A DNA stretch of 64,000 bases from Pecten maximus (Eukaryota), in assembly GCF_902652985.1 (NCBI RefSeq), contig NC_047026.1:21762001-21826000 (forward strand), given 5' to 3'. The notes beneath the pieces are model-generated. The model saw only the letters and a program-made list of their open reading frames with translations. It did no database searches and had not been told where the DNA came from. Shown one piece after another: positions 9,201 to 44,543 of the stretch (positions are counted from its first letter, which is position 1; every line of letters starts with the position of its first letter). The position numbers and the translations under genes were made by a program.

Positions 9201-12200
9201 ATTTGTATTCACCACCGCCACCCACGTTTTCTTAATTGGTTTCAGTTGATGGTATTTCTTTTTTATTACTGGCAGTCTCGTAATTTTTATCTATGTACCT
9301 GTACTGTTTTGTTTATCGACGCAGTGGTGTTTTTTTATTATCATCATTCTACTTTGCGGGTGCTAGAGTAAAAATGAATTGCTTGAGGTCTATATTAAAG
9401 ATGGCCACCCCGGAAGTAGATATACCTGATGTCTATTTTTATCCTATTTTACGTATAGCCAGTGACATTCTTATTTTGTTATTTGAATCAAACCTTTTTT
9501 TAAGGACGTTGGGCTATCGTGTTGTTGGATACCTACTGTGGACCTACCAATGATTAATGGAAATGACGTTATAGGGGGAATACGTCAATCGGTGTATACG
9601 GCGAGTCAGAATGTAGACTGTACGACAGGTAATTGGTTCACTGTAGACTTTACCTGGATAGGGAAAGTAGAACCAGCTGGCCCGATTGATGACGTCAACC
9701 CTTGTGTCTGTCCTGGAGTAATAGTCTTGACTATCCCGGCTCGTGCTGAACACCCCGGACGCTGTCAGTATGCCACACAGTAACCAACCTGTTACCAGAG
9801 CTATCAGGATCTGTGTATAGAATACGGCTATACGGTAATTATCAAATATTATTATAAAATAAATAATCATTTTTTGCTGTTTGTTCACAGAATGAAACTT
9901 TCTAATTCGTCTACTACCCCTGACCACTTAATTACATCAATGTTTGTCCATGATCATGTTAAAAAAGTACAACATAGGTGATCAATTATCCACACCCAAA
10001 AATAATAAGGAACAGCCGGGTAGACTGCCTCCACATGAATCCTTAAATAAACACGGATGTTGATTTAAACCCATACCATACCATAACATATCCGGAATAT
10101 CCATAGGCAAATTATCAGGAATGCAAAGCGTCACCGACAGATTTAATATATACATAACAAAGGTCAAACTCTATACTCTATAACAAAGATCAAATAAAAA
10201 ACACGTTGAACATCGAATATAAATACATATAAAAACAAACAATAGATCATTAACAATAAAATGTTTGGCAGCAGAATTTGTTAATATTACAAGTATTACA
10301 ACATTACACATTTACTTCAAACTAGAAAAACCAAACATGTTCAAGTAATAAGTATAAGATCCTCTGATATTGTATAACAAAAGGGGTTTTAAAGGTGGAT
10401 TCGTGTAGGCAAACAGGACACTATTGAAGAGTACTAGGCTTTTGTAGACATAACACCATTTTGGGGGTTTGATCGAAGATCTAACACCTTTTTAGAAGTA
10501 CTATGGTAGATCTCACATCTACCATAGTAACATAGTAGGAGTTCTGTTGTATTTCAATATTTTAAAATCATATTAACTATATTTCGTTTTGTTATTGTCG
10601 TATAAAGAATCACTGGTGTTAAATGTATTCATTCTGTTGTGTATTTGACACTGTATAGTACTCTGCTCCTTGAATAGGTTAAATAGTAAAATATTGTTTT
10701 CTTTTGAAACTATTTTTAATGGTTAATTCTAATACTGCTTGGGTAACTGAGATATGCTGTTTCCAATGTTACCCGACAGCGTTAGTAGGTAGTGATTGGA
10801 ATATTCGAGTTTTGACTTACATACATGTACCTCATGATAACCTGTTGTTGGTTATTCACAGTTTTTTCACTGTAAAATGTTTTTTTCTGAGAATATATAA
10901 CCACAAAATGCAAGTCTTACATTTAAATGATGTTATACTTCTAAGCCCAAAGTAATTTTACTCGTATAATACTACTGCAATGAATCTGTCAGTGTATCCT
11001 CGCTTTCGTTTTTGGTCGGTTAGACAATAGCTGTCGTGCAGACAGGGTCACGTTTCAGTGTTTCCGTTGGAGGGGTCACTACTCTTTGTCAAAAACTTCC
11101 GATCTAAGGAATAGTCCATGTAAAATGATATTTGAAATTTTGATACTTGCTTGTCACACGAATCATTGAGTCTAAGTAAATTAGCAAGTGTTTGTTTGTT
11201 GTACTTACAATGAAACAAATGCTAATAAATGCAAGCAAAAAAAAAGCCAAAGTAACATATCAATACACCATTCATGACTTCCGGTTGGTGTAGCTGTGTA
11301 CCACTACATGTGTGTCGTCTGCTACAAATTGTCCTAGTCTCTTTGTATATTATGCACGTACTTGTGCGTTCGGTAGGACGTTGATAATATTGGTCATAAA
11401 TGATATGTGGTAGAGTTAAAATTAGATAATTCAGTTTAATAAGGTTTATTGGTTTTAAGAGTTACTAATCATGTTATGGGTCTGAAGCGAGATTATCATG
11501 TGCTCAACTGTAACATTGTATGCACGTGTCACAGTATACGTACTAGGCTATAGCTAGCTAGTTTAATCACCTTGAAAAGACATTAATTTCAAGTAGGAAC
11601 ACTGTCCCCGAATAACATTCCGGGCTAGTGGTGTCAAGATACGTTAAGGCTACAACTGCATAGTGTATGAAACTTTTCCTACAGCGACATAAATAAAATA
11701 TATAATTATTGATAAACTATTTGTCAATTTAAGAAATCGGTGAATTACTAATATTGTTTTTATTTAATTATGTATTATTGATCAGTTAATAAGTAGAGTA
11801 TAATGTTATAATACAACTACATATACATGTATTTTGATGAAGTTTGCTAGGTACAATGTACATGTATTTGAACCAAGTGAAAATCATTTCCTCCAATTCA
11901 AATAACAGTAACAATTTATAAAATTGACATTTGCTTATAAAGATAAATCATTAGGATATCAATACTGCATTCTTTATTGTCAAAAAGGCAATTTTGAAGC
12001 AAAGAATATTTGGAACTGGTTGAATTATATATACATGTATATAAATTGTCAAGACTGTATTGGATCTTTGAATTTTTAAGGATAATTAGTATATGCGTGT
12101 ATAATAATCCGTTTTGTATGCATCTCTTGTTGTTGAATCTAATGTCTTGATTATCCTTAAAACTTTCATTAAAAAAAGCAGTCATTGCCCATTTATTCCT

Positions 12201-15200
12201 TACAAGTCTGTCATTTCGAATTTGAATTGTGAATTTCTGTTACCATAATTCTGTGTGTTCGGAAGTTTTATGAAGTTATATCAACAGCTGACGTCATTTA
12301 AGTCTATCAGACACCAACAGGCCTTTCAGACCTTTTATTGTTATTGCTATCATTTTAAAAAAAAGTATCTTCTGACCAGATATTTGTTATCATACGTCAT
12401 ATGGCAATGTGTTTTACCATCTACATTTTTATTTCATCGTCTTGTTTTACTATTGCAAAACCTGTGTGATGAAATATATTTAAAAGTTGTCATTTTGCAA
12501 AACCTAATAGGATGAAATATGCTATGAAAAACAACCTATGATAATTTACAGCGAACACCTGATGTAGAGAGTAGCGGATCACATATTACTTACAGCGAAC
12601 ACCTGATGTAGAGGGTAGCGGATCACATATTACTTACAGAGAACACCTGATGTAGAGGGTAGCGGTCACACGTTACTTACAGCGAACACCTGATGTAGAG
12701 GGTAGCGGATCACATATTACTTACAGAGAACACCTGATGTAGAGGGTAGCGGTCACACGTTACTTACAGCGAACACCTGATGTAGAGAGTAGCGGATCAC
12801 ATATTACTTACAGCGAACACCTGATGTAGAGGGTAGCGGATCACATATTACTTACAGAGAACACCTGATGTAGAGGGTAGCGGATCACATATTACTTACA
12901 GCGAACACCTGATGTAGAGGGTAGCGGATCACATATTACTTACAGCGAACACCTGATGTAGAGGGTAGCGGATCACATATTACTTACAGCGAACACCTGA
13001 TGTAGAGGGTAGCGGTCACACGTTACTTACAGAGAACACCTGATGTAGAGGGTAGCGGTCACACGTTACTTACAGCGAACACCTGATGTAGAGAGTAGCG
13101 GATCACATATTACTTACAGCGAACACCTGATGTAGAGGGTAGCGGATCACATATTACTTACAGCGAACACCTGATGTAGAGGATAGCGGTCACACGTTAC
13201 TTACAGCGAACACCTGATGTAGAGGGTATCGGATCACACGTTACTTACAGCGAACACCTGATGTAGAGGGTAGCGGATCACACATTACTTACAGCGAACA
13301 CCTGATGTAGAGGATAGCGGTCACACGTTACTTACAGCGAACACCTGATGTAGAGGGTAGCGGATCACACATTACTTACAGTGAACACCTGATGTAGAGG
13401 GTATCGGATCACACATTACTTACAGCGAACACCTGATGTAGAGGGTAGCGGATCACATATTACTTACAGCAAACACCTGATGTAGAGGGAAGCGGATCAC
13501 ACGTTACTTATAGCGAACACCTGATGTAGAGGGAAGCGGATCACACGTTACTTATAGCGAACACCTGATGTAGAGAGTAGCGGATCACACGTTACTTACA
13601 GCGAACACCTGATGTAGAGGGTAGCGGATTACATGACAATGTCGTTTCCGTGTGTATACAGGTATCGGCATCTCCCTCTTAGCTAAATATAACGATAGTA
13701 TAAGGGCTATCGCACTTGTCCTGAAGGAAATGAAAGTATTTATCAATGACATTTATTTCACTGAAACGGTAATACTAACGTTTTCTTTGCGTCAAAATTC
13801 ATGAAATATAGATTAAATTTCTTTTAATATAGCTCACAATAATAACTTAATGTTTATATAGACTATGCCTATGATCTATAAACTATAATCATCCCAGTTT
13901 AGCCGTAGTACTACTAAATTCAGTTAGCCCCCGGTTTAATAAGTGTTTCTGTGACAAACCATTTCTATCACTAATTGATGGATATACATGTACTGTATTG
14001 ATATCCAGCAAATGTAACCGATAAAAACAATCTTCGAGTCACGTCAAATTGATGTGAGAAAGAAATATGATCCATCTGTTAAATATAACATTGGAACAAA
14101 ATATATTCCTGACTGTAATCAGAGATCTACTCACAGTAATGAAATGCCCCAGTGAACCTGTGCAAATTTAGTAATGGATTTCACCATGAAAATGCCGAAT
14201 AGAAGGATGGTCGGAACAATGGTTACAGGGCCAATAAACTTCAGCAAGACTCCAACCAATCCAGTAGCTCCTATCAGGAAGTGTATGGCTCCAGCAGCCA
14301 ATAGACTGCCTTGTAACTAATAGAAAATAAGTGGTAAGAATTTTTCTTGCACTGGTTTCATTAATAACAAAGAAAACGCGACTTTTTATCTTTGTTCAAA
14401 GTTTCGCATTTGAAAAGTAAATATATAAGTGATCGTTTGATCCCGTTTAATGTATTAATCCCCATCGTGCACATCTTCGCTAGCCAAGGCTTCTGATTAC
14501 GTTACACTCCACGAACCCTTGGCAGATATAGGCGTCAGTTCTGGCCCTCTAGCGGAGATTCGAAATTACCACCCTTTACACATGAAATTTTTTACCAACC
14601 AAAACGAACGTTACCGATTTACTTCATCGGTGATGTTTACAAACGCACATGGAGGCTTGTGTCATTTTGATGAGATATGTGATCAATGACTTCTATTAAT
14701 TGATCAATCACTGCGAATGTTTCCCAATGATTGTACGTCTCTGTATTTAGATACAATACCATGACATAGTCGACAATGTAGCTCTGCACTGGGCGCCGCA
14801 ATTGTTGTTTACTGTGAAACCAAGCCTAGATGTAAAACGCGATTTGATTGGGTGCCCTGGGATTCCAGGGCACGACGGTTTGAACACGACTATATCTGCC
14901 AAGGGTTCGTGGAGTGTAACGTAATCAGAAGCCTTGGCTAGCGAAGATGCATCGTGCATTGCTACATGTAAACAATAATAAAGGAAAGGAATTTGTACTT
15001 ATCAAATTATCTTGTATGTATTATGATATATGTTGTCATTTACCCCCTGTACAGCTTCCAGAATGATTTCTTCAGTACCCTCTTGGAATACCGTTTCTGT
15101 CACGTTTGTGATGTTGTTGAAAACTGAAAGAGAATGATAGTTCTAGATGAATGTTGTTACCGCCAATTTGACATGGAACATTAATATGTTATATACTTCT

Positions 15201-18200
15201 GTGCTATGTAGATCGGAACATGTATGTAATATGACGCATGCTATCATAGACCTGTAATCGCCTGAGTGTTTCTTAACAAATCAATGTTTAAATAAATGGC
15301 GTTAATGTCCCATAATACTCAATCTAAAAAAACTTATTATATATACTCGACTGCACCTGACTCGTTATGTTACCTGTAATCGGTCGTGTTTTATTATGTT
15401 ACCTGTAATTGGACTTGTATTATTACACCTGTCTTTGTCTAAATCAGCCATTGCCAGTAGTGGGGCGACATAATCTGGGGAGGCTCCCTGGTACAGCGGC
15501 AGTCTGTCGGGACAAATGTTTAATGTAAATTGTAACTCTCCAGACAATCATTTCAAACACATCTCTTTAATGTTTAGGACGGTAATATACAATGTGAACC
15601 AATAAGATTACTTTTTCAAGCAGTATTATAATTATTACCGTTTAACTTTAAAAACTAAACCCGTTAGTTGTTGAAAAAAAAGGAAAGCTGGTTATCTAAT
15701 CCCTTACCTTATTAGCGTTTTCACGAAGTCAAATGAAGTCACTGCGCTTAGTTACCTTATTCCTAACTTGCCAATATGATCATTAGTGACCCCGTCATTA
15801 CGTTACCTTATTCCCAATGCCACCATCATCAGAATAGTAATGACTTTATTTTTACCTTATTCCCAATACTACCATCATAGCGAGTCCATTCCTTCCTCGG
15901 ATACCAATATGTCCATAACCATTATATGGGTTCCGTAACGTTACATGTACCTCATTCCAAACAGACAATTATTATAAACATGACAATCTCGAAACGTTAC
16001 CATATTCCAAATAGACAATTATTATAAACATGAAAATCTCGAAATGTTACCATATTCCAAATAGACAATAACTGCTGTATTCCGACGTTACCTTATTCCA
16101 TATATCAAATAATCTCGGTATAGACAGCAAAGACAGAGTTCGGAAAATGGATACGGACATACAAATGTACATCACATAAATATGAATTGAGCAATCATGT
16201 TTATAATTCATCTTATAATTATTTTTTCAATATTGGCCTAGTTATTACGCCTCGGTCAGCCTTATTTGCCATCGGCCGTTATAATATTCCAAATGATACT
16301 ATAATAGTGAATCTGTAGTTTTTAGTGTAACCATGACAAAAACATTGTTTCCGTTACTTTACTTTATTTCAACTGTCACCATCAGAAGGGTAGGGATTTC
16401 GTTACTTTACCTTATTCACAGTGTCACCATCAGAAGGGTAGTATTATTGTTACTTTACCTTATTCCCAGTGTAACTACCAGAAGGTTAGTTGTTCCGTTA
16501 CTTTATTCCCAGTGTAACAATCAGAAGGGTCGTGTTGTCGTTATTTTACCTTATTCACAGTGTCACCAATCAGAAGGGTAGTATTATTGTTACTTTACCT
16601 TATTCCCAGTGTAACTACCAGAAGGTTAGTTGTTACTTTACCTTATTCCCAGTGTAACAATCAGAAGGGTCGTGTTGTCGTTATTTTACCTTATTTCCAG
16701 TGTAACCATCAGAAGGGTAGTGATTATATTACTTTACTTTATTCCCAGTGTTACCATCAGAAGGCCAGTGATTCCGCTACTTTACCTTATTCCTAACGTC
16801 ACCATCAGCAGAGTAGTGATGCCGTTCATAAACAGAGTTGAGCTTAGAAGTTTGGCCTTGAAGTCCTCGTTTTCCTCTGCACACACAACCTGAGCCACCA
16901 GTAGGGACACGGCCAGAGATGTAGACAAGGACAACAGGGCTTGCTGTAAAAGAGGCTTGATTACGCAATCATTAGAATATTTTAGAGGATATCACTTTGT
17001 ACTCATATCAAAGAAGTCAAAGCATCATGTAAGTCCCTGATATAGGATTACCAAGTAGTGTTCACGTATCCCAAAAGTAAAACTCATTGTACGACAGGAA
17101 TGTGTAGTAATAATTTACCCCATACATCTGTGAAAGGTTAAGGAGTGTGTCGAAATATTAAGATTTTACAAAAATCAGTATACCAATAAGGGGCGGAATG
17201 GGTAAACGTCGTACCCGTCACTCTGCCTACGTACTGTTTAAGATTGCATTTGGACGAAACTTGTTATACATAAATCGGTATTATCATATTGGCGTATACG
17301 AAGGCGTATTGTATTGTTAGTCAGTATCAAATTACATACTGCACTTTTTTTTTAATTTTTTTTTTTTAGTTTTTTAATTTTTTTATGATGTCATTTTTAC
17401 ACTTTAAGACCTGTGCATTATGGATTCAATTGTTATCTTTGAAATGTAAAACGTTGTCTTGCTGGTTAAGTTGGCCTCAATACTTTTGTTTATATGTAAT
17501 ACCGGTATGCCAAACGATTTCGTAATTTTTACTCAAAATCGATAAAAGAGTACAAACTTGACGCCCGCTTCATCGAGGCACTTATTTTTATCTTCTAAAA
17601 GATATTTATTGAATTATCAGACAAAGAAGCTTTTATATTATCTCCTTTGACACTTCAATAAAGAAGTAGACATTTTCTATGTTAAAGTTTAAAAAAATGT
17701 CTTTTCTTTACATTTAATTATTTTTATACGTTATATTGCAAAAATGCATTTACGATGTGTAGTGACGAGTCTGATGTATGTACACAACTAGGAAGTGCTT
17801 CCGTTATAGTGCAATTGTACTGAAGCATACTGCCGTATCTTAAAAAAAATCCAAACTAACATTACTTTGGATTCCGAGCCATGTCGGAATTAAAGGCAAC
17901 GAACTTGTTGACCGCCAAGCAAAACATGCTTTAAATCTGCAACAAACAAATATCAAAATACCATATACAGATTTCAAAACTGTAATTAGTTCTGCCATCA
18001 AGAATAAATGGCAGCTACGCTGGTCTCTCGAGACGAGCAACAAACTTTTTAAAGTACAACCCGAAACTTAAAACATCAACACCAAGTCGGAAGGATCGTA
18101 GAGAGGAAATAGTCCTCTCTCGGCTCCGTACCGGGCACACATATCCTACTCATTCGTTCCTTTTAAAACGAGAAGATCAATATGTTATGCATGTGATGCT

Positions 18201-19790: not shown

Positions 19791-20085
19791 AGTGAATTAA
19801 AAAATAAACGGTAACAAAATGTTAAACCGGCGGTAAATTATTTAAGGATTTAGATAATCAACCATTGCAGTGACACGGGTGAAAGATTCGATTTATAACA
19901 AAGATAACGTTTAAAAGAAAGTACGAAATGTGTTGGATTTTTTGGGTTTTTTTTTTTCTATGAGACTGGCTTATTTCGACTCCAATGGTTAGTGTTCTAC
20001 CACCAAAGTAATCGTGTGACGTCATCAAGACGTCATTTATTTATAACGTCATCATAGAGTTATTACACGTTTCTTACAGATAAAT
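19791..20085 (-). promoter_or_regulatory. Candidate 5'-UTR exon and promoter of the SLC23 gene
   Basis: GTAAGT donor at 19785-19790; full CRE TGACGTCA at 20017-20024 with nearby half-sites; several AGATAA motifs. Confidence 0.35.
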
Positions 20086-20247
20086 TGGAGTATAATCAAT
20101 TATTTACCATAGTATATCATGCCGTACATGTACAAGTAAAATAGTGTGTCGAATAATTGAATACTACACCGTAAATTCGCATTTGGCTATTGTATTCATA
20201 AACATATACATTAGACATGGTATGTGCTAAACAGCTAAACTGCTGAC

Positions 20248-20486
20248 AGTAGTCTAGGACATACGTATGGGTCATTTTTTCCCCTATATGTCTTTGCATG
20301 GCCGCCATCTTGATTGTGGAGGGAAACCGGAAGTGTAATCAATTGGACCTTTAAATAGTTAACAATGAAAAACCCCATTGTGTCAATATTAGTTTGGTTA
20401 TAACAATCGATTAAAGGTTTATTAGGATATTAGTTCAAAGGGTCGTAGACCCTTTATTATGAAGTACACCTGTTCAAGATGACACA
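20248..20486 (+). repeat. Polinton left TIR (~240 bp)
   Basis: Reverse complement of 29289-29549 apart from a few substitutions and one ~22-bp indel. Confidence 0.93.
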
Positions 20487-21549
20487 CTCAATTTGACCTT
20501 TAAATAGTTTACAGTGGAAAATCCCATTGTGTCAATCGATATTTTTTTTTGTCGTTTGTTGTATTTAAATCCTTTGTTATGTTTGGCTGGAATCACATCC
20601 CTAGTAGGGTTATGACTGCTCTATTTTAAATATATGACAAGGTGTGATGTCATGGTAACATAACATTACAAGTAACAATTAACCAATCATATTAATGTAC
20701 GTGTATACACAGTTTTTGTACCGATTGCGCAGACCATAAGTGAGCAATGCTACAACACGTCAGAAGACAAGGTGTATGTCATGGCAACATAACATTACAA
20801 ATAAAACAAACCAATTGTATTAATGATAATTACGGATTTCTCAAACCATACACTAATAAAGACTATTAATGCCACGAAACAAACACTTCTTTTTTATGTT
20901 AGCTGCGAATTTAAGGTGGAAGAAGTTCAACAGAAACGTACCTTCAAGGTAACTATCAATATAATTATCATATTTTTGTTATGTATAAATGCATTTAGAA
21001 AACATAGAAAATATATTTTTGTTTGCAAGGGGATACAATGTATGTACATGTTTTTAATTTTGTACCGAGAAATTGAAATATTTTTGTCTATACGCCCGAG
21101 TACATTTGTAAACAAGAACAGACTTGCGGACAATGGACGGGATTGCTACAGTAAACTATTAATATATTGTACGTTAATTTTTACCTAGACTGGCCACCAG
21201 ACCAGTTGTTTTGTTAAGAATTACCAAGCTAAATTCTAATACTAGATTATCTGCCCCTAGTTTGAAATCTAGAATCAGACATATCCTAGGGATCAAAACC
21301 ATAAAGCTCAATTTTATTTATAATTTTAATATTCTAGAGACAGGGGGCCAGTCTAATGTTTACCGGACTGTCCAAATTTATTTATTCATGCATATCTTTT
21401 ACCATCAAAGATGTAAGATAAAAAAAACAAAAAACAAAAAACAAAATACCAAATGTATGTACAATGATTTATTTACAAAATCGTATTAAATTTCATAGAC
21501 ATTAGCAATAAAAAATGTCAGAAAACTATACACTAAGAATATTATATAA

Positions 21550-22635
21550 TTATGCATCAACAGCATCATTTGCATTTATCCAGGATGAAAACTTAATTGG
21601 CCAGTGAAGCCATTTTACATACAGCTGTTTATTTCGCCCTTTACCTCTTGTTTTTAAAACTTTTTCAATTTTCCACATGTCATCGTCTCTAAGATCCACT
21701 TTCTGCAGTTCTGATTGATAAAAAGAACCCGTGATTTCAACATCATTGTAGTCTTTCAATCGGTAAATTGGCACAGATTGCCTCCAGAACCGTTTTGCTA
21801 TAGTAAATATTTCACCAGTCCATCTTTCATCATACTCGCGGGTAAATATGTTTCTCAAATATGTAATGCGCACGCTGTCACCGACGTTAAATCTGAATCT
21901 CATCTTCTTGTTGGGAATTGTGTTTTTTGTATGCCTGGACAAATATGTATCCAGTCTCACAGTTTCAGCGTTGTCCACTGTCACATCAGCTGGCGCAATG
22001 TCGATGGTGTTATGTATCGTTTGGTTATAACCGTCCACAAAACTCTGCAGTTGGTCAATGTAACGATACGATTGTTTGTACGTAAAGTATCTGTACAATT
22101 TTGTCTTAACGGTTTTCAGTACGCGCTCGCTAACGGCGGCCTTGACCTCTGATTGTGCATACATGTGCCTAATGTCTCGCGTGCGAAACAGGGACTGAAC
22201 AACTTTTGCTCTAAATTCTTGACCCTTGTCCGTCCTGATCCTACTTGGATGTCTCCCTTGGGTGAATATATCTTTAAATGCAATGGCCACTGAGTCACCT
22301 CTCAACCATAGAAATTTCGAGAACACATCGATGACAACCAAAACGTAGGAAAATTCGTCGTTGTATTTTGAAAACTTGACCATGTCGATGAGGTCAGCCG
22401 ACCACTGGTCATCTATTCCTGCGACGTTGATGTGACTTCTGTTCGCTGGTTTCCTGTTTGGTCGTTGTAAGCTGTATGCCTCGTGTCGCTGGAGCCATTT
22501 CCTTGTCTTGTATTTACTGATGTTGAATTTCCCTTCCTTTTTGACAAATCGATACACTTTGTCGGGTCCTGATAGACTTGCCGGTTTCGAGGGATTAAAG
22601 TAAATATCCCTCAGATAATCCTCCCAGGCAGCCAT
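21550..22635 (-). CDS. Polinton c-integrase (rve, DDE) with C-terminal chromodomain, 361 aa
   Basis: WSADLIDM (D), IDVFSK, IRTDKGQEF (D), AVSERVLKT (E), YNQTIH, WTGEIF, GSFYQSELQ, chromodomain IEKVLKTR...YVKWLHWP...SW. Probably a ~6-codon in-frame deletion at WLR^GDSV (inferred from family pattern). Confidence 0.93.
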   Translation of the reverse strand: MAAWEDYLRDIYFNPSKPASLSGPDKVYRFVKKEGKFNISKYKTRKWLQRHEAYSLQRPNRKPANRSHINVAGIDDQWSADLIDMVKFSKYNDEFSYVLVVIDVFSKFLWLRGDSVAIAFKDIFTQGRHPSRIRTDKGQEFRAKVVQSLFRTRDIRHMYAQSEVKAAVSERVLKTVKTKLYRYFTYKQSYRYIDQLQSFVDGYNQTIHNTIDIAPADVTVDNAETVRLDTYLSRHTKNTIPNKKMRFRFNVGDSVRITYLRNIFTREYDERWTGEIFTIAKRFWRQSVPIYRLKDYNDVEITGSFYQSELQKVDLRDDDMWKIEKVLKTRGKGRNKQLYVKWLHWPIKFSSWINANDAVDA

Positions 22636-22684
22636 GGTGTGTACCTTCCAAACTTATGATAGAATGCGTGCTTTTGCATAACTT

Positions 22685-24168
22685 TTATTCGTCCGCCTTT
22701 TCATCGTATTCTTCAAAGTCATCCTCGTCCTCCTCCTCATCCTCGTCACCAGAAGTTAATCCGTCGTCTTTATACATGTACTCCTGGAAATGATGTTTGT
22801 TCTTTAAAAGAGACATGCGTACAGAAGACCGAATGTTGTAGCCACCTCGTCTATACTTTTTCACGGATTCTATGGTTTTTGTATGAAGATTTCCACCTTT
22901 AATTTGAAAGATGTTGATTAGCGTCTGCGCGTATTCATTAAGGAATCCCATTAGATCGTCATCTTCCATCTTCTTATATGCCTTACATTCTGCTTCTTTC
23001 TTTGAAAATCACTGTCCTTTGTATTTGTCTACTCGTTTACTCCATTTCTCTTCGTTCTTGGATTTAGCTAGTTTGAGCTTCTTGGTGAAGTAATCATCCT
23101 CTTTTGAGTTTTCATTCTCTGTTTCGTTTTCAGAGATACCATAGTCACCAAAGGTACTAATCCTCTGTTTCTTTGTGGGACTATCGCCTTGGTCATTACC
23201 ATCCTCAAACTTTCTTTTATGAATACTGTTTTCTGGGCACCACCGTTTCACATGCCTCTGTAGATCATGAATGTTCTCAAACATCAGACCGCAATCGTCA
23301 CATGAATGCATTTCTAAGGGTTCTTCAGAACATTCACTGGCAACGGTATCCCCCAAATAATTATTAAATGCGGTTTCGTTTTGTGAGGGATTCTTACTCT
23401 CCTGGAGCTTTGTGGTGTACGTCTGCCCTAATGTACTTCCTTCAATAGAATGGGACCTTGGTTCCCCTTGTAGCTCCCTTTTGTTCTGTGTCGTGACCTC
23501 CGATTGGTCATTTAAAACGTCAGTGCGCAGGCGCAGATGTTCCGGAGTTTTAGGTTTTAAATCCACTAGTAAATAACCGTACGGTTTGCTGGTAGCCTGT
23601 TCAAAGTGACGCATAAAGTGTTTTGCGTTGTCGGGGTACATCTGTCGTGCTAGTGTCATGGTTTGTTGTCGATCAATGGGATTGTTAAAAAACCGCCAAA
23701 TAGTGGCAATTTCTTCTCTGTGTCGGATCTTTACTATAATAGAGGTTTTGGTTTATAGCAATGACCGACAAGTTCCGGTCTGACGGTTGTTTTAATGACG
23801 TTATATAGATGCTGCCATCGTTTATACAGCCATATAATTCGTTCTGGTGGTGGATTCAGTTTATCGATGTTGTCCTGTAATAGCTTTGTTACGAAATGCG
23901 TCTTCCCACAGGACGTCGGTCCGGACACAATCATCGTAAAAGGGTGTTCGAAACTAAACTGTTTCGAGTCTTCGGAGCTTTTATCCATTGTGATATGCAG
24001 TGCTCCCGGTGCTCTCGGTGCTCCCGGTGCTCCCGGTGCTCTCGGTGCTCCCGGTGCTCCTTTGATTTGTGCTTCGTCCACTGTTGAATGTTGTTTCTTG
24101 GTATGTCTTTGTATACTGTATCGGCTACAGAACGTCTTTTGACACTGTGGGCACGAAAAACTATACAT
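22685..24168 (-). pseudogene. Polinton packaging-type (A32/FtsK-like) ATPase fusion: N-terminal C2H2 finger, GAP repeats, ATPase, Zn-finger/acidic C-terminal domain; disrupted
   Basis: Walker A HPFTMIVSGPTSCGKT; Walker B region missing; alternate frame RNLSVIAINQNL...RRNCHYL; +1 frameshift in the T-run near 23690; ATPase C-terminus LARQMYP...ATSKPYGYLLVDL...RLRT; ORF 22685..22969 is in frame with 23009..23659 across one premature TGA. Confidence 0.85.
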
Positions 24169-24367
24169 CTTTACGCTCCAAGACTGCGAGTGAGAATGAT
24201 GTCTTGTTTAAATGTTTATAGATTTTATACCGTTAAGCAAAATGCATTGTTGGTAATTTCCACTGCATTGTGGGTAATTTCCACTGCATTATGGATACGA
24301 TATTGGTTATATTTTCAGGAGATTCCAGATCGGCATTCAGTGCCAGAGAATCTGTACAGACGACAAG

Positions 24368-27300
24368 ATGGGATATGACTGTAAGCAGTGCGGAGCTTCA
24401 TTTACCAAATCCAGCCTACTACAGGAACACAAAAGAATCAGGGGCCACGGAGACAAATTTAAATGTACTGTTTGTGGAAAATCCTTCGGGCGTAAGGATA
24501 ATTATGATAGACATTTGTTACGACATGCAGACTCATCATTATGTCAATGTGATGATTGTGGAATGCTATTTAGTAGAGGTGATAGCTTACAACGTCACCA
24601 GGAGCAGAAACATGGTCAGTCTGGAGGAGGTGTTAAGCGACATGCTGATGAGGAAAACATTGATCCAACACCTGTTAAGAAAACGGCAAAGACAACAGAC
24701 GACCTCTACTCTCTTCGTGTCATTAAAGAGACAAATATACCTAAATTTCAAACCTCAGCAACACATTACAAGGTAGATTTTGAAGATTTGGAAGTGCGCG
24801 GAGTTGTAGAAATTTTAAAAACACTGAAGAGCATTTTTCAGTCACTCATCAGGAATGTCACAGAATTCATGGAAAGCAATGATTTAGTTCGATTGTCCGT
24901 CGAATGCCCCGAGTTAGATTTCCCTATCTCACTACCTTTTATGAAAGTTTCAGCTTTGACGCCAGAGAGGTTACTGTCAGAGATAGAGCGCGTGTTGCAG
25001 TCATATGAACAGTTCGTTCTCGATCAAACTCTATATATGGAACTTGTTCATGTACATCTGCCAAAAGGTGGTGTAGGGAAACGATGTCATTTTGTTGATT
25101 TAGACAAGATGATAAAAAGCAAACGATGTTTCATCAGAATCCAAAACAACGACAATTTATGCTGCGCTAGAGCTCTCGTGACCGCCATAGCACGACATGA
25201 AAAGCATCCAAAATGGGAAAGAATACGGCATGGTGGAAAGATACAAGAAATATTAGCCAAGGAGCTCCATACAAAAGCCAGAATACCGTTGCAAAAGTGT
25301 GGAATTACAGAAATCAGATTATTTCAAGAAGTGATGCAAGACTACCAGATAGTAGTGCTGTCGAAGGAACACTTTAACGCCATCGTGTTTTCCGGACCCG
25401 AACGTGAAAAACAACTATACCTATACCATCATGACGACCATTACGATGTTGTTACAAGTATGCCTGCTTTTTTGAATAAGAATTATTATTGCACTCAATG
25501 CAAGAGGGGGTATGATCACAAGGAGAAACACAAGTGCAATGACCCCTGTGTCTATTGTCATCACATCCATCTCGAGGAAGTGGAGGAATGGAAGTATTGC
25601 CAAGATTGTAACAGGTATTTTAAACATAATCTGTGCTTCGACAGTCACAAGAAACCCTCTGTTTCAGGAAAAACAACTTGCGCCTCGTACTATCGATGCA
25701 AGAACTGTGATCAAGCCATCAATGTTGACATGCATAAAAAGGCACACGTGTGTGGTGAACGCTATTGTAAGACGTGCAAGGATTACTTTGATGAAGATCA
25801 TAAATGCTACATGCAAACAGTTGTAGCGGATGAACCATCGCAAAAGCAATGTGAGGGAACCAAACAACTCCAGACGTACATATTTTTCGACTTTGAATGT
25901 ACCCAAGACGACGTGATGGAGTGCGAAAGAGGTTATAAACCAGGAGCAGACAAGCGGTGTATCAACTGTAAAAAGTCTCGTTGTGGTTCATTCAGACATC
26001 AGCCGAATTTATGTGTGGTCCACAAAACGTGTGCTGCCTGCATAAACAGCGATGTAACATCTCAAGTGAATGCAAAAACTGTGGACCAAATGAGAAGATC
26101 TTTGGCGGACCCGAGACGACAAAGGACTTTTGTAAATGGTTGTTTTCGGAAGAAATTTTTGATGCCAAGGTCTTGTGTCATAGCTTTAAAGGTTATGATA
26201 GTTACCCTATCCTTGGATATCTATACCACAATGGGATGCTTCCTGAAGTTGTCACAAGTGGTTTCAAATACTTGAGTATTAATGTACCGCAATGCCGCAT
26301 TCGCTTTATTGACAGCATCAATTTCTTACCTATGGCTTTAGCAGAATTACCGAAAGCATTTGGAATCGAGGAACTAGCTAAGGGATACTTCCCTCATTTA
26401 TTCAATCGCAAGGAAAACCAGGAAATATGCATGTCACACTTACCTGATAAAAAATACTATCACCCAGATGGTATGAAGCCAAAAAGGAGAAAACCATTCA
26501 TGGAATGGTACAAAAATAACAAAGACCATTCATTCACCTTCCATGAAGAGCTTCTGAAGTATTGTCGATCTGACGTAGACATTCTCCGTAAGTGTTGCTT
26601 AAAATTTCGGAAAATGTTCATACAAATGACAAATAAAGATGGCAGTGCTGGAATCGACCCATTTCAGAATTGCATCACCATAGCATCTGCCTGCAATCTT
26701 GTGTACAGAACAATGTTTTTGGAGTCTGAAAGCATTGGTATCATACCACCACATGGATACAGACCGGAGGATAAACAATCTATCAAAGCAATGAAATGGC
26801 TGAAATTCATCGCAAATACTGAAGGTCTTAGAATTCAGCATGCATTACATGATGGAGAGAAAACAAATAGGACCTTACAAAGTCGATGGGTATACCGAAA
26901 ACAATGAAGGAAAAGAAACTGTCCTTGAATTCCACGGATGTTTCTGGCACGGTTGCACGAAATGTTATGCCCGTAGCACTATCAATACTGTAACCGAATG
27001 CACCATGGCCGACCTCCATATGAGAACGCTTGACAAACAACGCTATCTGCAAAATCTAGGGTACGAATACAGATGCATATGGGAATGCGACTTTGAACGG
27101 CAAAGTAAGGTTGATGAACTACTGAAGTCATTTTTAAAGACATTAGACGTTGAAGACCCCTTAGAACCAAGAGACGCTTTCTACGGAGGAAGAACGGAAG
27201 CATTTACTATGTATGCAGAAGCTTCAAAAAACAGACAGATCAAGTACTATGACGTAACATCCCTTTATCCATACATCAACAAAGTTGGGAAAGTACCATT

Positions 27301-28760
27301 GGGCCACCCTACCATCATCACAGAAAACTTTCAAAATATAGAGGAATACGAGGGTTTGATCAAATGCAAGATGATACCTCCAAGAAACTTATTCATACCC
27401 GTTCTTCCGTATCGCTCCAATGGAAAATTGCTGTTTCCGTTATGTCGTACGTGCGCCGAAGATTCATCAACAGCAAAGTGTTGTCATGGTGACCAAAAAA
27501 GGGCTATCACTGGAACATGGGTCACTGACGAATTGAAAACTGCCATCAGAAAAGGATACAGACTGTTGGAAACGTACGAAGTATGGCACTTTGAAAGCAT
27601 TTCACAATACGACACTGTTTTGAAAACTGGTGGTGTCTTCACTGAGTACGTAAACACCTTCCTGAAACTCAAACAAGAAGCTAGCGGATGGCCTAACTGG
27701 TGTAAAACTGACCATGATAAAGTAAAATACATCAATGACTTTTATGATAGAGAGGGCATACTTCTGGACAGAGAAAAAATCGAGGAAAATCCTGGGTTGA
27801 GGAGACTGGCCAAGCTCATGCTTAACAGGTAGACATTTTGCTTTATTTTTATTTTATTTTTTTATTTTTCTTAATTCTATTTGTATAGTACGATTTAATG
27901 TTATGTCGGTAGCAAAAGGAAATTTGAAACTTTAATCAAATATATTATTTTATATATTTACAATAAATGGTACATTCTTTTGATTTTTGTTTATATTTGA
28001 TCAGTTAAATTATGAATTGGAACAATTGAAAAACGTCTGTAAACAATTTATGTTTGTACATTACAGTTTCTGGGGAAAGTTTGGTCAACGCACAAGCATG
28101 ATACAGTCATCATATATATCTGACCAGTGTGAGTACTTTGACATGATGTCTAGTGACAGCCAAATCGTCAAAGATGTCAACTTTGTATCGGATGAGATGG
28201 TGAGGATGGATTGGAACTACGACAGTGATTTTCTGACAGCTTCTGGTCGCACAAATGTTGTAGTTGCTGCCTACACAACTGCACAGGCAAGACTCAAGCT
28301 GTATAGCTACCTGGAACCCCTGGATAGAAGTGCACTATATTGTGATACAGATTCAGTGGTGTTCACGGTGGAGCCAGGGCAATGGAAGCCTAATCTTGGA
28401 GATAATCTTGGTGATCTAACTGATGAGGTGGAAGGAACGAGCATTGTTAACTTTGTCACGGGAGGCCCAAAGAACTATGCATATACACTCTCAAAACCAA
28501 ATAAGGATGGTGAAATGAGTTGTTGCAAGGTTCGAGGAATAACTCTTAACTACAAAAACTCTCTAGAAATAAATTATGACACTGTGAAAGACATGGTTTG
28601 TGGCAAGAAGAAAAAGGTTACTGTGTGTGATGAACTCAAAACTTGTAGAGACAAACAATCATGTAACCTCTTGACAACATTGGAAAATAAGGATTATCAG
28701 ATTGTTTTTGACAAGCGTGTCATGTCCAACAAATATGTCACTCTTCCGTATGGAATGTGA
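24368..28760 (+). pseudogene. Protein-primed family B DNA polymerase (pPolB), ~1385 aa reconstructed; 2 frameshifts (~26064, ~26861) and 1 intron (27829-28066)
   Basis: ExoI FFDFECT, ExoII HSFKGYD, ExoIII YCRSDV, motif A YYDVTSLYP, motif B KLMLN|SFWGKFGQ, motif C YCDTDS, GGPKNY, KVRGITL, terminal TLPYG. Confidence 0.94.
27829..28066 (+). other. Spliceosomal GT-AG intron (238 bp) in the pPolB gene
   Basis: AACAG|GTAGAC ... AT-rich ... TTACAG|TTTCTGG; splicing yields AAC AGT TTC TGG GGA AAG = NSFWGK. Confidence 0.9.
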
Positions 28761-29288
28761 ATGTTTACGTATGGATGGCATGATAACATACCCCCAAACC
28801 AACTTAATGGTTGTATAAACGATAGTGTAACCATTCTATTTAGCAGGTTACGTTTGTCCATTGATACATGTGCAAGACATATTTATAATGTTCAACTGTA
28901 TTTTTCATATATAACATGTATCGTGTATGATGTGGAAGTTGATTTACTCCTTAACTGTATACATTGTATAAACCATTGATATGCTATTAAAAGGTTCATT
29001 AATCAATTACGTTTAAATTCCTTTTTGTTTTTATTCTTGTTGTTGAAGAGCAGATACGTATACATATGTAAGTTAAAAACTGTGGATCATTTTTTTATAA
29101 TGGTAGAGTTCATACTCAAATACAAATGGACAAACGTCTTATAATGTGACATTTATATTGTTTTAGATAATGATGTACCTATGACAATAACACAATAGCA
29201 ATGTAACGTTAGTGACGATAAAAGGATTTTTTTTTTAAACTGACCAGAGTTCCTTTCAGACAACGTTGTCACAATAGGATCATTAGAA

Positions 29289-29549
29289 TGTGTCATCTTG
29301 AACAGGTGTACTTCATAATAAAGGGTCTACGACCCTTTGAACTAATATCCTAATAGACCTTTAATCGATTGTTATAACTAAACCAATATTGACACAATGG
29401 GGTTTTTCATTGTTAACTATTTAAAGGTCCAATTGATTAACCTTTAATCAATTGTCATAACCACTTTCGGTTTCCCTCCACAATCAAGATGGCGGCCATG
29501 CAAAGACATATAGGGGAAAAAATGACCCATACGTATGTCCTAGACTACT
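29289..29549 (-). repeat. Polinton right TIR (~260 bp)
   Basis: Reverse complement of 20248-20486. Confidence 0.93.
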
Positions 29550-29717
29550 GCTGACGTTAAGCACAGTAATGGGACACATAAATAATGAGGCTTCTGTGTC
29601 TAGGATCAGTGATTAAGATACCACTGTAAATTCGGAAGTACTATTTCAGTCGATGCATGTCATATCGAATAAGAAATTTGTATTATGGCCAGTGTACTAC
29701 AAAGATAAAGTGAAAAG

Positions 29718-30621
29718 GTTACTAAAATGATTGTTTCATTCCTTCATACCTTACTAGAATGAGTATCCCATTCCTTACTACGTTACTAGTATGATAGTCT
29801 GATTCCTTCATACGTTACTAAAATGATTGTCTCATTCCTTCATACGTTACTAGAATGATTGTCTCATTCCTTACTACGTTACTAGAATGATTGTCTCATT
29901 CCTTCATACGTTACTAGAATGATTGTCCCATTCCTTCATACGTTACTAGAATGATTGTCTAATTCCTTCATACGTTACTAGAATGATTGTCTCATTCCTT
30001 ACTACGTTACTAGAATGATTGTCTCATTCCTTCATACGTTACTAGAATGATTGTCTCATTCCTTACTACGTTACTAGAATGATTGTCTCATTCCTTACTA
30101 CGTTACTAGAATGATTGTCTCATTCCTTCATACGTTTCTTAAATGATTGTCTCATTCCTTACTACGTTACTAGAATGATTGTCTCATTCCTTACTACGTT
30201 ACTAGAATGATTGCCTCATTCCTTCATACGTTACTAGAATGATTGTCTCATTCCTTACTACGTTACTATAATGATTGTCTCATTCCTTCATACGTTACTA
30301 GAATGATTGTCTCATTCCTTCATACGTTACTAGAATGATTGTCTCATTCCTTACTACGTTACTAGAATGATTGTCCCATTCCTTCATACGTTACTAGAAT
30401 GATTGTCTCATTCCTTCATACGTTACTAGAATGATTGTCTCATTCCTTCACACGTTACTAGAATGATTGTCTCATTCCTTCATACGTTACAAGAATGATT
30501 GTCTCATTCCTTACTACGTTACTAGAATGATTGTCTCATTCCTTCATACGTTACTAGAATAATTGTCTCATTCCTTCATACGTTACTAGAATGATTGTCT
30601 CATTCTTTCATACGTTACTAG
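29718..30621. repeat. 32-bp satellite, block 1 (~28 units), CGTTACTAGAATGATTGTCTCATTCCTT(CAT/ACT)A
   Basis: Direct inspection. Confidence 0.97.
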
Positions 30622-31990: not shown

Positions 31991-34900
31991 TCACATTCTG
32001 CTGAGGAAATCCGCACCAACGTTTTCACATCCTCTGATTGCACGTTTTCGGAATTTGTACGGTTGTAGTTGCAGTGCCCATCTCATTAACCTCGCATTCA
32101 CACCCTTCATCTTGTTCAAGTATATAAGTGGTTGATGATCTGTCTCCAACACGAACTCCTTCCCATAGATGTATTTTTGGAATTTCTGAATGGACCACAC
32201 TACAGCCAAACATTCCTTCTCAATCACGGAATATGCGCATTCACTGGACTTCAGTTTTCGGCTAGCATAAGCCACCGGAAGTAAATGGTCTCCCTCCATT
32301 TGCAGTAAAATACCGCCTATTCCCTTATCTGATGCATCGGTCTGGAGAGTGAATTCCGCTTCCAAGTCAGGTAACTTCAGTATTGGACTAGATGATAGGA
32401 TCTTCTTCAGAGTGTTGAACGCTCTCTCATGAGTGTCCTGCCATATCACCTTGTTTGGCATTCCCTTTCTTGTCAGGTCAGTCAATGGAACAGCAATAAC
32501 AGCAAAATTAGGGATGAATTTCCGGTAAAATCCGGCCAGACCCAGAAAAGATCGCACCTGCTTCTTCGTCGTTGGTCTCTCCGCTTCGCTGATTTCTTTG
32601 ACCTTGTCCGGGGTTGGTAGCAATCCTTGCTGTCCAACAATATGTCCCAAACACTCTAGACTACTATATCCAAGCGCGCATTTACTTGGTCTCGCTGTCA
32701 ATCCAGCCCCTTGCAGTCGTCTGAACAATTCTGCAAGTACAGAAACGTGCTCCTCCCATGTCTTCGTGTAGATTAACAGGTCGTCTATAAAACTGTCTAT
32801 GTTGGTCATTCCCCGAAGAAGTTTCCTCATCAATCGACAAAAAGTCGCTGGGGCGTTTACAAGACCAAATGGCATGACTGAGAATTCGAATAATCCAACA
32901 GGTGTTGAAAATGCCGTTTTCTGTCTGGAACTCTCTGACATAGGAACTTGCCAGTAGCCTTTACTAAGGTCAAGACGGGAAACATTGGTGACCCGCAAGT
33001 CGCGAGAAAATATCCTCGGCGTCTGGCATCGGTTCGGCGTCAAATACGGTTATCCGATTCAGGTGACGATAATCGACGCAAAACCTATTCGTGCCATCTT
33101 TCTTCCTTACGATCACAACCCCTGCCGAATAAGGAGACTTTGACGGATGAATAACTCCCATCTTCAACATCTTGTCTACCTCATCCCTGATAGTTTCCTT
33201 CATGTTGAATGGAATGTTGTGAGGCTTGAGTCTAACTGGTTCGGATGTTGTCGTCTTGATGTCATGCTCAACTAACGACGTATTCCCGGGCATATCAGTC
33301 AGAACATCAACAAATTCCTCCATCAGTTCTGTCAAATCCTTCCTTTGTGGTTTGGTCAACAGCTCAGAAACTAATACATCTTCAGCTGACTCCTTCCTCC
33401 CCAACTGAGGCATCGTAATATCCTCCAACAGACCATCTTCGTAATCAACCGTCTCCTCTTCCTCTTCATCCACTATGGACACACAAACAACAGACATAAT
33501 TCCGGATTGCTGACATGCAGAGTTCTCTCCCCTCTCAACGTATCTCCGTAGGAGGTTGGCATGCACAGTTTTCACCTTTCCATCAATGTCGACCTTATAA
33601 TCCATTGAACCCATCTTCTCTGTAATCCGGTATGGTCCTCGCCACTGCATCTCTAACTTGTTCCTCTTCGTTGGCAACAAAATCAAAACCTTCTGGCCAA
33701 CATTCAGTTGTCTTTCCTTAGTCTTCCGGTTATAGTAAGACGCTTGGCGGATCTTCGATGTCCGAAGTTGCTTCTGGGCCATCTCACAGGTGTCTTCTAG
33801 CTTTGCCTTCAGATCAATGACATACTGGTAGGTAGTCTTTGTCTCAGGATCCGGAACTTGTTTGGTCCAAAGCTCCTTTAAGATCATCATTGGCCCTCTG
33901 ACAGTACGATCATACAGCATCTCAAATGGTGAAAAGCCAAGACTCTCTTGGGGAACCTCACGATACGCGAATAGTAGTGCGTTGATATATTTATCCCAAT
34001 CCCTGGGTCTTTCAGCACACATCCGACGAAGCATTTGTTTAAAAGTTCCATTAAACCTCTCGACTAGGCCATTACACATCGGATGATAGGGTGTTGTGGT
34101 CAACTGGCGAATAGATAGTAAACGGCTTACCTCCCTCATGAGTTCTGATGTGAATTGAGCTCCCTGGTCTGTGAGTACCTCGCTTGGGACACCAACACGA
34201 CTATAAATATCGACCAGTGCCTCGGCGACACGCTCCGTCTCGATTCCTTTCAATGGTATGGCCTCTGGATATCTTGTGGCATAATCCACTAGTGTTAAGA
34301 TATAGCGGTTCCCACGGTCTGTAGCAGGTTGGAGTGGCCCCACCAGGTCAATAGCTACGCGCTGAAATGGCGTTCCAATGAGTGGTATAACCCCTAACGG
34401 AACCTTGGTCACCCTGCCCTTGGGAAATGTCCGTTGGCAGACATCACACGAGCGACAAAATCTTGTCACATCTGACGTCAACCCAGGCCAATAGAACTCT
34501 GATAATATCCGCTCGGTCGTCCGTTTCGCCGCTAAATGGCCAGACATCACAGAATCGTGAGCCAACTTCATCACAGCAGGTCTCAACTTGGTCGGTACCA
34601 CCAGCTGCTTAAACAGCCTTCCCTGTGCTGATGATGGACTCTGAAACTCTCTGTATAATAGACCCCTCTTGACATAGAAATGAGACTTACCGCCATCTGA
34701 TCGTATCTTCTTGTCATCATTCCTCGCCAATTGCCATAGCTTCACAAGACTGTCATCAGCTTCCTGTTCAGCTTTGATCTCATCAGGAGTAGCAAAGTTG
34801 TCTGCAGTAGGTACATTCAATGCGCGATAGGGTCGGTTCTCCTTCTGCCGTTGAGCCCTTGTCTGTACAGCAGCAACAGCTTCCACCTTCCAATCAGTAT

Positions 34901-36281
34901 CTGGATCTCTAGGCTGTCTCGCACCCTCGATGTTTCCAATAATTACATCATACAGTGGATTGTCCATACACCACGCCACGACAGAACCAACGTAATACGG
35001 TGTGTTGATAAAAACAGTAGCAATAGGAACCTCTAACTTAGAACCATCTGCTAGCTTACATGTTTGGGTCTCACCAGTCATCTGCTCTTCGCCAACTAAA
35101 CTCCGCTTGATTACCACTCCAGAACATCCGGTATCTCTTAACACTGACACAGGAGACTCATCAACACGACCATCTACAACCGGCATCTCATCAGACTTAG
35201 GAATCTTCACATAGCAGGATATGTTTACTCCAAAATGCTCGCTACGTCTACCAGTCGTAACTCCAACTTTACCACTACTTGACTTCTTCGGACAATTGTA
35301 AGACATGTGGTCTGGTTTCTTACAAATAAAACAATGTTTACCTCCAGTCTGTCCCTTCTTAAACTCCTTGGCATCAGAATGAGAATTGGAAGATTGCTGG
35401 TTCTTCATGCTAGACGAGGTCTTATCAAACTTCCGGGCTGGTCTTACAAAGTTAGACGCGTTCCCTCTAGCCTCAGCGAATTGGTCAGCTAATGTAGACA
35501 TCTCAACAATACTCTTGGGAATCCTCTCCTTAAGAAAAAGTTTCAACTCATTCCCACACGCCTGTAAGAATTGGTCTCTTACCATCAGGTCTCTCAGGCC
35601 ATCATACGTCTTATCAACGGATGCCATCTCCATCCACCTAACGAGGTCGCTCTCAAGCCGTACCGCGAACTGCGAAAAGGTCTCGCCTGTTTCCGGTCGC
35701 CCACTTCGGAATCTTTTCCTAAAGCTATCCTCGGTCATCTCGAAACGCTTTAACAATGCTCCCTTCAGCACATCATAGTCAAGACTCTGATCAACAGGCA
35801 ATCTAGAGAATACGTCCAGAGCTCTTCCCTTCAACAAAACACTAAGGTTCGAAGCCCATTGTGTGGTCTTGTTCCATCCTTGCGTTGTAGCATACCGCTC
35901 AAACCTTTGAAGGTAGGAATCAATATTATCCTTCCCCTCCTCAAAAGCAGGAAGTTTCGGTCCCCTCGCTGATACAGAAGGTGACTTACCTTGATCCATT
36001 TGTGGTTTCCTCTCCTCCTTCTCTAATAGTTCCATCTTTCTTGCATGATCTCTAGCAGCTCTTTCTTCTTTGTCCATCTCCAAAGCACGTTGCTCCTTCA
36101 ATATACTCAGCTTAATCTGCTCCACTTTTTGCTGTTCGTCCCATTCCTTCTGCTTCTGTTCCCGTTCACTCTGTCTCTCATCTCGCTCTCTATCCTGCTC
36201 ATCTTTGACAAACTTCTGTAAATCTGTGCCTTTGTACCCAAGCTCAGTTCCAATCTCCATAACAACTTTGACCGCCGTCAT
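31991..36281 (-). CDS. Gag-Pol polyprotein (SCAN-like capsid, CCHC, protease, integrase, RT, RNase H) with one frameshift at ~32980
   Basis: CFICKKPDHMSYNC; LRDTGCSG; HHCC (AHD..GHL..CDVC); IDLVGP/TDQG/VERFN; RFCVDYR, LDLSKGYWQ, MPFGL, FIDD; LQTDAS. Likely start MTAVK at 36281. Confidence 0.93.
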
Positions 36282-36636
36282 TTTGTCAATCTCAAAAGTC
36301 AGTACAAAACCTGCACCACAGTATTTGCTTGAAATAATATTTACAAAACACTGCATTGGTACACAACAACAACAACACAATGTACAAAATCCTGCAATAC
36401 ATCTAAAAATGAAAGATGATATATCAGCAAAGTACATAAAGTTTGACTTACCTGGAATCCATGTACAGCCACAGGTCTCCATCTGTTAGTAGCTACTTAA
36501 TGCCTATACTGTACCCCAGGACCTCCCCAGTATCATACTTACCATAAAGCAATATCACACTTTCTCGAAACAACTAACATACCCTCGTATACATAGCTAT
36601 CAACTCGCAAACACATTTCTCTCTCAACAATCGTTT

Positions 36637-43900: not shown

Positions 43901-44258
43901 CGTTACTAGAATGATTGTCTCATTCCTTACTACGTTACTAGAATGATTGTCTCATTCCTTACTACGTTACTAGAATGATTGTCTCATTCCTTACTACGTT
44001 ACTAGAATGATTGTCTCATTCCTTCATACGTTACTCGAATGATTGTCTCATTCCTTCATACATTACTAGGATGATTGTTTCATTCCTTCATACGATACTA
44101 TAATGATTGTCTCATTCCTTACTACGTTACTAGAATGATTGTCTCATTCCTTCATACATTACTAGAATGATTGTCTCATTCCTTCATACGTTACTAGAAT
44201 GATTGTTTCATTCCTTCATACGTTACTAGAATGATTGTCTCATTCCTTCATACGTTAC
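37922..44258. repeat. 32-bp satellite, block 2 (~198 units)
   Basis: Same unit as block 1; resumes in phase after the LTR. Confidence 0.97.
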
Positions 44259-44543
44259 AAACGCTACCCCGAAACTTGCAATAGACTGTGTTATATTTGA
44301 CCAACGTCTCATTGCCAGTTAGTGCTGTATTTGTAAAGCAACATTTGAACTGAATTCTTTACGTGTAATATATGTGTTTATTATAATTTCATAAGCACAT
44401 TCATCTACAGCTTCGTATCGCGTTGTAATGATCATTTCAAATGACTGTAATTGTGGTACACGCGGAACAAACAGTAACGCATAAAACAGGAACAGACTAA
44501 TGTGCACTACAAGCATTGAATTACCAGCAAACGCCTTCTCAAT

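Follow-up and report, generated by a model that had tools for sequence, protein, structure and literature searches.

Is a short Polinton with intact ends and no capsid genes a transposon lineage that has shed its virion genes, or the remains of a longer element? The question is raised by a 64,000-nucleotide stretch of the Pecten maximus genome (contig NC_047026.1, positions 21,762,001 to 21,826,000; hereafter the window), in which a Polinton spans 20248-29549 (9,302 bp), opening with AGTAGT and closing with ACTACT. A first-pass annotation, made from the letters alone, had offered two readings, a capsid-less lineage that synthesizes itself and retains its packaging ATPase, or an internal-deletion derivative. 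For the present copy the former finds no support, as a Walker B motif is lost, the polymerase gene (pPolB) is frameshifted twice and the integrase carries a private deletion. The latter is supported by lesions in all genes, two of them internal deletions, and by a span beyond the integrase of 1.3 kb against an apparent ~8 kb in a published mollusc family, and we consider it very probable that the element is a dead internal-deletion derivative of a bivalve-type (canonical mollusc) Polinton, decaying in place.

The boundaries of the element are real. Its terminal inverted repeats (TIRs) measure 242 bp on the left and 264 bp on the right and differ at 5 of 242 aligned bases; the right arm is longer by 22 bases, a surplus piece in which 20 of 22 bases match another stretch of the arm. 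The target-site duplication (TSD) GCTGAC matches perfectly on both flanks, an agreement between two 6-mers that has a chance of ~4e-4. The TIRs lie within the 100-1,500 bp taken as the Polinton/Maverick range from the available part of PMC10748475, and the 6-bp TSD within the 5-8 bp of such elements; the length falls short of the 13-25 kb that is typical, not obligatory, for Polintons. Neither a second TIR match nor a second copy of the element was found within the window. The annotated TIRs, AGTAGT termini and TSD were thus borne out, as was the count of three genes; the termini are indeed intact, but all three of the genes between them are damaged. The layout is as follows.

20242-20247, no strand: left TSD copy, GCTGAC
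20248-20489, plus strand: left TIR, 242 bp, begins AGTAGT
20490-21549, no strand: AT-rich stretch with a TIR-like 49 bp, a 62-bp repeat pair and AATAAA signals
21550-22635, minus strand: RVE integrase with C-terminal chromodomain, 361 aa, open frame, private 6-residue deletion
22685-24168, minus strand: pseudogenised packaging ATPase
24368-27828, plus strand: pPolB part 1, fingers through polymerase motifs A and B
~24746-25066, plus strand: terminal-protein-like domain of pPolB
~25100-25471, plus strand: predicted vOTU protease fold of pPolB
~26876-27091, plus strand: presumed VSR-like insertion of pPolB
27829-28066, plus strand: GT...AG intron-like stretch, 238 bp
28067-28760, plus strand: pPolB part 2, motif C and C-terminus, open
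28761-29285, no strand: AT-rich 3' spacer, coding signal not found
29286-29549, minus strand: right TIR, 264 bp, ends ACTACT
29550-29555, no strand: right TSD copy, GCTGAC

The integrase, identified by PF00665 (E=1.8e-6, short of the curated cut-off), is the RVE enzyme that Polinton/Mavericks carry and shares 64-68% identity with full-length homologs (64-65% with Mytilus proteins). Six residues are missing after residue 112 that are present in all 116 homologs spanning the site (119 aligned); the fold predicted from a 13-row alignment (predicted local distance difference test, pLDDT, 54.8) was too poor to judge this deletion. The integrase stands alone in its 90%-identity cluster, on a single contig, which hints weakly against a young family, and a GTDB scan with the integrase alignment gave 78 pattern matches, none of them confirmed. 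This bears on the chief rival explanation, in which Polintons of a stable capsid-less lineage live on as pure transposons with pPolB, integrase and ATPase, and the present copy is one that has decayed. We hold such a lineage to be improbable; the one-member cluster speaks against it, as do the two internal deletions proven in the integrase and the ATPase, which show that this copy loses DNA.

The ATPase gene carries a C2H2 finger, a short 9-bp repeat, Walker A, a second C2H2 finger and an acidic tail. Residues 466-516 of its Pinctada homolog P0121 (~51 residues, Walker B within) have no counterpart, the flanking matches abut at 23776/23777, and no Walker B motif occurs in the six frames of 22600-24300. 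Frame changes lie near 23.78 and 23.69 kb and an early stop at 23009-23011 in the tail, all of these lesions being called against P0121, the single ATPase among the collected proteins. Judged from the sequence as assembled, the element keeps no working ATPase; the intact packaging ATPase of polintoviruses and adintoviruses is absent. The annotated ATPase fusion needs correcting: the ATPase is a separate gene (ending at 22685, with the integrase start at 22635), and its fusion partners are two C2H2 zinc fingers and the acidic tail. The stretch 22685-23400, which had been suggested as a place where a capsid might hide, aligns with the C-terminal extension of P0121 and is part of the ATPase, not a concealed capsid gene. 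A satellite that keeps its ATPase for packaging in the capsids of helper Polintons would agree with the intact ends and with an ATPase gene that can still be recognised, but this ATPase is out of frame and without Walker B, no helper is present in the window and a helper would presumably supply an ATPase of its own, all of which makes a satellite extremely improbable.

The polymerase hits PF03175 and shares 63-65% identity with Ruditapes and Mya proteins. Part 1 has three C2H2 fingers N-terminally, an exonuclease and the terminal-protein (TP) and vOTU domains of a Polinton/Maverick pPolB, though the gene is frameshifted near 26.06 kb and again near 26.86 kb, all 7 of 7 full-length homologs being colinear over the four pieces. 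The model of its N-terminal region (pLDDT 84) matches OTU proteases (Z 10.4, root-mean-square deviation (rmsd) 3.1, 109 aligned; best Foldseek E 3e-4), preceded by a little-finger-like domain with a middling score (Z 6.8, rmsd 3.5, 101 aligned), and on this model pPolB is predicted to carry the vOTU cysteine-protease fold. The statement that the element lacks a protease holds for an adenain-like gene but not for pPolB with this predicted fold. In a phage collection a pPolB piece retrieved 20 records, all below 60% identity and mostly polymerases of tectiviruses and archaeal viruses. We take ~26876-27091 to be a VSR-like insertion from its motif, from weak phage hits and from the name of one homolog. 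Insertions of this kind are described in the available parts of 10.1101/2023.08.22.554363 and PMC10748475, and the TP-vOTU layout in that of PMC11071308. Assignment to the pPolB2 class from the VSR motif alone was rejected; the motif does not settle the class, because 2,559 of the 2,598 mollusc copies in the accessible portion of PMC10748475 Table S2 are pPolB1.

The first-pass annotation did not mention the intron-like break between the two parts of pPolB, a 238-bp stretch (27829-28066, ~20% GC) that leaves a zero-residue gap in polymerase motif B. The site is reached by 111 of 120 homologs, 104 of which continue (intronless or spliced), 5 stop there and 2 differ; the five open reading frames (ORFs) that end at the site share the same residue-then-stop pattern and are scattered in a FastTree tree. 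Damage was rejected as an explanation of the stretch, given its GT-AG ends, the zero residues lost and the recurrence of the site. No title on a spliceosomal intron in a Polinton DNA polymerase was found at title level, and we do not claim that such an intron is unreported. It is the more unusual detail of this copy because intact vertebrate Mavericks are described as intronless in the available part of PMC8097293. An intron points to nuclear expression, and in this respect it favours a capsid-less lineage. The short form itself may even have been mobile, as a bivalve sub-family that would have shed its whole virion module cleanly, retained three working genes and a spliceosomal intron in motif B, and spread by purely nuclear self-synthesis, with the present copy recently dead; we think this improbable, and if it were true a role of the 'packaging' ATPase outside packaging would be indicated.

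The spare stretches offer no room for capsid genes. They have a GC content of 30% against 41-42% in the genes, and their longest stop-to-stop frames are 127 aa and 72 aa, shorter than the 390-aa cut-off for major capsid proteins (MCPs) in the available part of PMC10748475, so that an intact MCP gene cannot fit; the intact double jelly-roll major capsid gene of polintoviruses and adintoviruses is absent. A Pfam scan of the stop-to-stop frames of at least 20 aa (n=69) found no capsid or protease family and 11 weak unrelated matches, in agreement with the annotated lack of capsid genes. PHROGs gave no virion gene match for 14 spare frames, in a search lacking a Polinton capsid or adenain sequence as positive control; the ESM Atlas gave no usable match for 20805-21185 and 22688-23008 and is uninformative; Rfam gave no match across 20000-29800. 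In a codon-bias scan of 20490-21549 the top score was equalled in 16 of 200 shuffles, at low power, the median of the real genes being no higher. A single tblastn match of 391 collected proteins to the spare stretches (E=0.008, into the integrase tail region) was rejected as a remnant and taken as chance. Short virion-gene remnants may nonetheless be present, because no Polinton capsid or adenain sequence served as a control in the searches and codon bias discriminated poorly. Long integrase fusions, which might reveal capsid neighbours, contained no capsid domain in any of three proteins (Pfam), and the best 150 hits of a full HMMER scan with the integrase were all at most 549 aa. What 20490-21549 does hold is a 49-bp partial copy of the TIR sequence (20488-20536), a direct repeat pair of 62 bp (20636-20697 and 20766-20825) and AATAAA signals 3' of the integrase, and we infer that it is the site of the lost capsid/protease block. 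The block is absent cleanly, the integrase remaining complete and the sub-terminal repeats in place, a point in favour of a capsid-less lineage.

The size of the parent can be approached through another mollusc. The available part of PMC10748475 reports ~850 integrase-linked pPolB1 copies, mostly 1163-1164 aa, in assembly GCA_016746295.1, a very large Polinton expansion, and our counts come from ~590 of the ~850 rows of its Supplementary Table 3, which gives no capsid data. Most rows place the integrase 1.6-1.9 kb 5' of the pPolB start, compared with 1.73 kb in the window. We took 51 rows by hand in which the landmark lay at most 15 kb from the contig start, dropping two plus-strand rows that have no integrase of their own upstream. 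Where the integrase side is toward the contig start (n=23), the distance is at least 8.05 kb in 17 rows and 1.3-8 kb in 3; where the pPolB side is toward it (n=28), distances start from 0.7 kb and are 1.3-8 kb in 16 rows (Fisher P=0.0015, the 8-kb threshold having been picked after viewing the data). The table's TIR flag, a loose one that is true for a row truncated inside the integrase, is true in 17 of 17 rows at 8 kb or more and in 2 of 6 below. These figures imply that elements of that family extend ~8 kb past the integrase and ~0.7 kb past pPolB, against 1.30 kb and 0.79 kb in the window. A family of the same layout is thus apparently ~6.5 kb longer on exactly the integrase side, which argues against a capsid-less lineage. 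In vertebrate Mavericks, according to the available part of PMC8097293, the integrase stands first in a module that also includes mCP, PW, MCP and protease, which fits a loss just downstream of the integrase. Layouts vary: in other mollusc rows in the accessible portion of PMC10748475 the gap is 4.1-4.3 kb, or the integrase lies 3' of pPolB. That the published family's 1163-aa ORFs are cut at the same intron was considered and rejected, as the ~0.7-kb right arm fits a complete gene.

The history that we propose starts from a full-length mollusc Polinton, probably ~15-16 kb long, with its capsid/protease block downstream of the integrase. A pPolB with terminal-protein and vOTU domains replicates a linear element from its ends, and its TIR ends are then inserted into host DNA by an RVE integrase, which produces the 6-bp duplication. 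The full-length element would have been replicated and inserted in this manner, and one internal deletion of perhaps ~6-7 kb would have taken out the virion block, here or in the parent. We lean slightly toward a loss at the present locus, after insertion; a loss in the parent, followed by transposition of the shortened copy, is rather unlikely, if still a serious prospect. Smaller deletions, frame changes and a stop would have followed, presumably after insertion. Because no full-length polymerase or ATPase remains, the copy as assembled cannot self-synthesize; it has neither the open pPolB nor the undamaged integrase of an autonomous capsid-less transposon, and its ends could at most be mobilised in trans by an intact relative.

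The small lesions fit neutral decay after insertion. If the TIRs were identical at insertion, their 5 mismatches in 242 bases correspond to a drift of ~1% per copy (95% range 0.3-2.4%), and in 2,193 codons 3.7 nonsense changes are predicted and 1 is seen (P(<=1)=0.11). Of 392 pPolB columns conserved in 90% or more of the full-length homologs, the window departs from 12, the homolog medians totalling 6. This divergence dates the small lesions, not the loss of the capsid block; decay after insertion would also explain the small lesions within a capsid-less lineage, in which all three genes of the parent may have worked. Two other retroelements in the window are likewise broken. Some frame changes adjoin short homopolymer runs and the region is rich in repeats, as would suit a Polinton that was collapsed or mis-joined in assembly and whose frame changes are sequencing errors. 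Such an artefact is highly improbable, since the target duplications match on both flanks, frames of 1,171 and 1,183 aa remain open elsewhere in the window, and deletions of 18 bp and ~150 bp are atypical of read errors.

Several points weigh against a dead deletion derivative. Neither a sibling copy nor a breakpoint was seen; the 20490-21549 stretch shows no capsid or protease remnant (0 relevant Pfam matches), so the loss looks clean, which a random deletion after insertion yields only sometimes. The 8-kb estimate is indirect, its source family being compared by layout alone and having a pPolB of 1163-1164 aa against ~1385 aa in the close homologs; the ATPase lesions are judged from one reference protein, and single-base frame changes could be assembly errors. 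For each pPolB piece, 9-21 of 35-42 homologs depart from the conserved columns as much or more, and all three genes probably still worked until fairly recent times, which a mobile parent without capsid genes would predict as well.

The rest of the window holds further genes and repeats. Five exons matching PF00860 (xanthine/uracil/ascorbate permease family) lie at 7139-16991 on the minus strand, the Polinton being ~3 kb upstream of the most 5' permease exon found. Tandem arrays with a 32-bp period occupy 29718-30621, 37922-44258, 49718-50491 and 4438-4818, the first of these starting ~50-170 bp past the right end of the Polinton. Two of the arrays flank a long terminal repeat retrotransposon at 31991-36485 (minus strand) with a SCAN domain, one frame change in its reverse transcriptase (RT) and the order gag-protease-integrase-RT-RNase H, the integrase standing ahead of the RT, which we take to be Gmr1-like. 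A LINE-like element at 44520-49528 (plus strand), with an open ORF1 (492 aa) and an endonuclease-RT ORF2 (1,183 aa), is possibly young, and a reverse transcriptase at 60558-62837 (plus strand) is broken by a stop. A 33-bp tandem repeat of 107 copies at 53033-56536 has very strong strand skew and a 1,169-aa open frame without a Pfam match, and two copies of a ~480-bp element resembling a miniature inverted-repeat transposable element, with 57-64-bp inverted repeats, lie at 410-885 and 14472-14949.

By its defining features the element is a Polinton, and it is neither a polintovirus nor an autonomous transposon. It is most likely an ordinary genomic fossil rather than a new minimal element, and as such it matters little: degraded Polintons are the rule (96% of vertebrate copies in the available part of PMC8097293), and capsid-less ones with an ATPase are published. 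The lesson is that an element may have tidy ends and a perfect duplication and still not work. Were short siblings with open frames to exist, they would provide a clean animal case of a virus turned pure transposon, in which the role of the retained ATPase could be tested.

Polinton-1N1_DR and Polinton-2N1_DR are non-autonomous elements that form multi-copy families. Like the present copy they are TIR-bounded and without morphogenesis genes, but they also lack the ATPase (PMC4028283 Table S1). ATPase-positive, capsid-negative Polintons of ~11 kb have been in print since 2014: the same table, with elements down to 10.3 kb, lists P_Pd1.1 (Platynereis dumerilii, 10,777 bp) and P_Gi1.2 (Glomus intraradices, 11,019 bp), both short, without MCP, penton and protease and with the ATPase scored present. 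These two share the pattern of presence and absence expected of a capsid-less lineage; the likeness is drawn from table scores alone, the hosts are others and the ATPase is '+' there and broken here. Module loss tends to be concerted, which speaks against that lineage, as in the available part of PMC4028283 the MCP is full in 46 of 72 Polintons and split in 13, and nine MCP-less elements are also without ATPase and protease. Adintoviruses and polintoviruses, as far as the accessible portions of PMC8502044 and PMC4405056 describe them, share the OTU-bearing PF03175-type polymerase (a class named 'Alpha' in PMC8502044) and the retrovirus-like integrase, but the present element has no virion genes and is hence not a virus; PMC4405056 states that some groups lost their capsid genes and became transposons, and keeps the name Polinton for capsid-less variants. 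Gene-deficient polintons remain mobile in trans according to the available part of 10.1101/2025.02.07.637071. Polintons are noted in bivalve genomes, without gene content, in the available parts of PMC9976758 and PMC10294476, and the best named homologs here come from bivalves (Mytilus, Ruditapes, Mya, Mercenaria and Pinctada). With bivalve Polinton/Mavericks the copy shares its TIRs, 6-bp duplication, rve-chromo integrase and zinc finger-TP-vOTU pPolB of ~1385 aa, and with Pinctada P0121 an ATPase with zinc finger and acidic tail; it differs from them in its 9.3-kb length, the absence of MCP, penton and adenain, the damage to its three genes, and an intron-like break in pPolB where 104 of 111 homologs continue.

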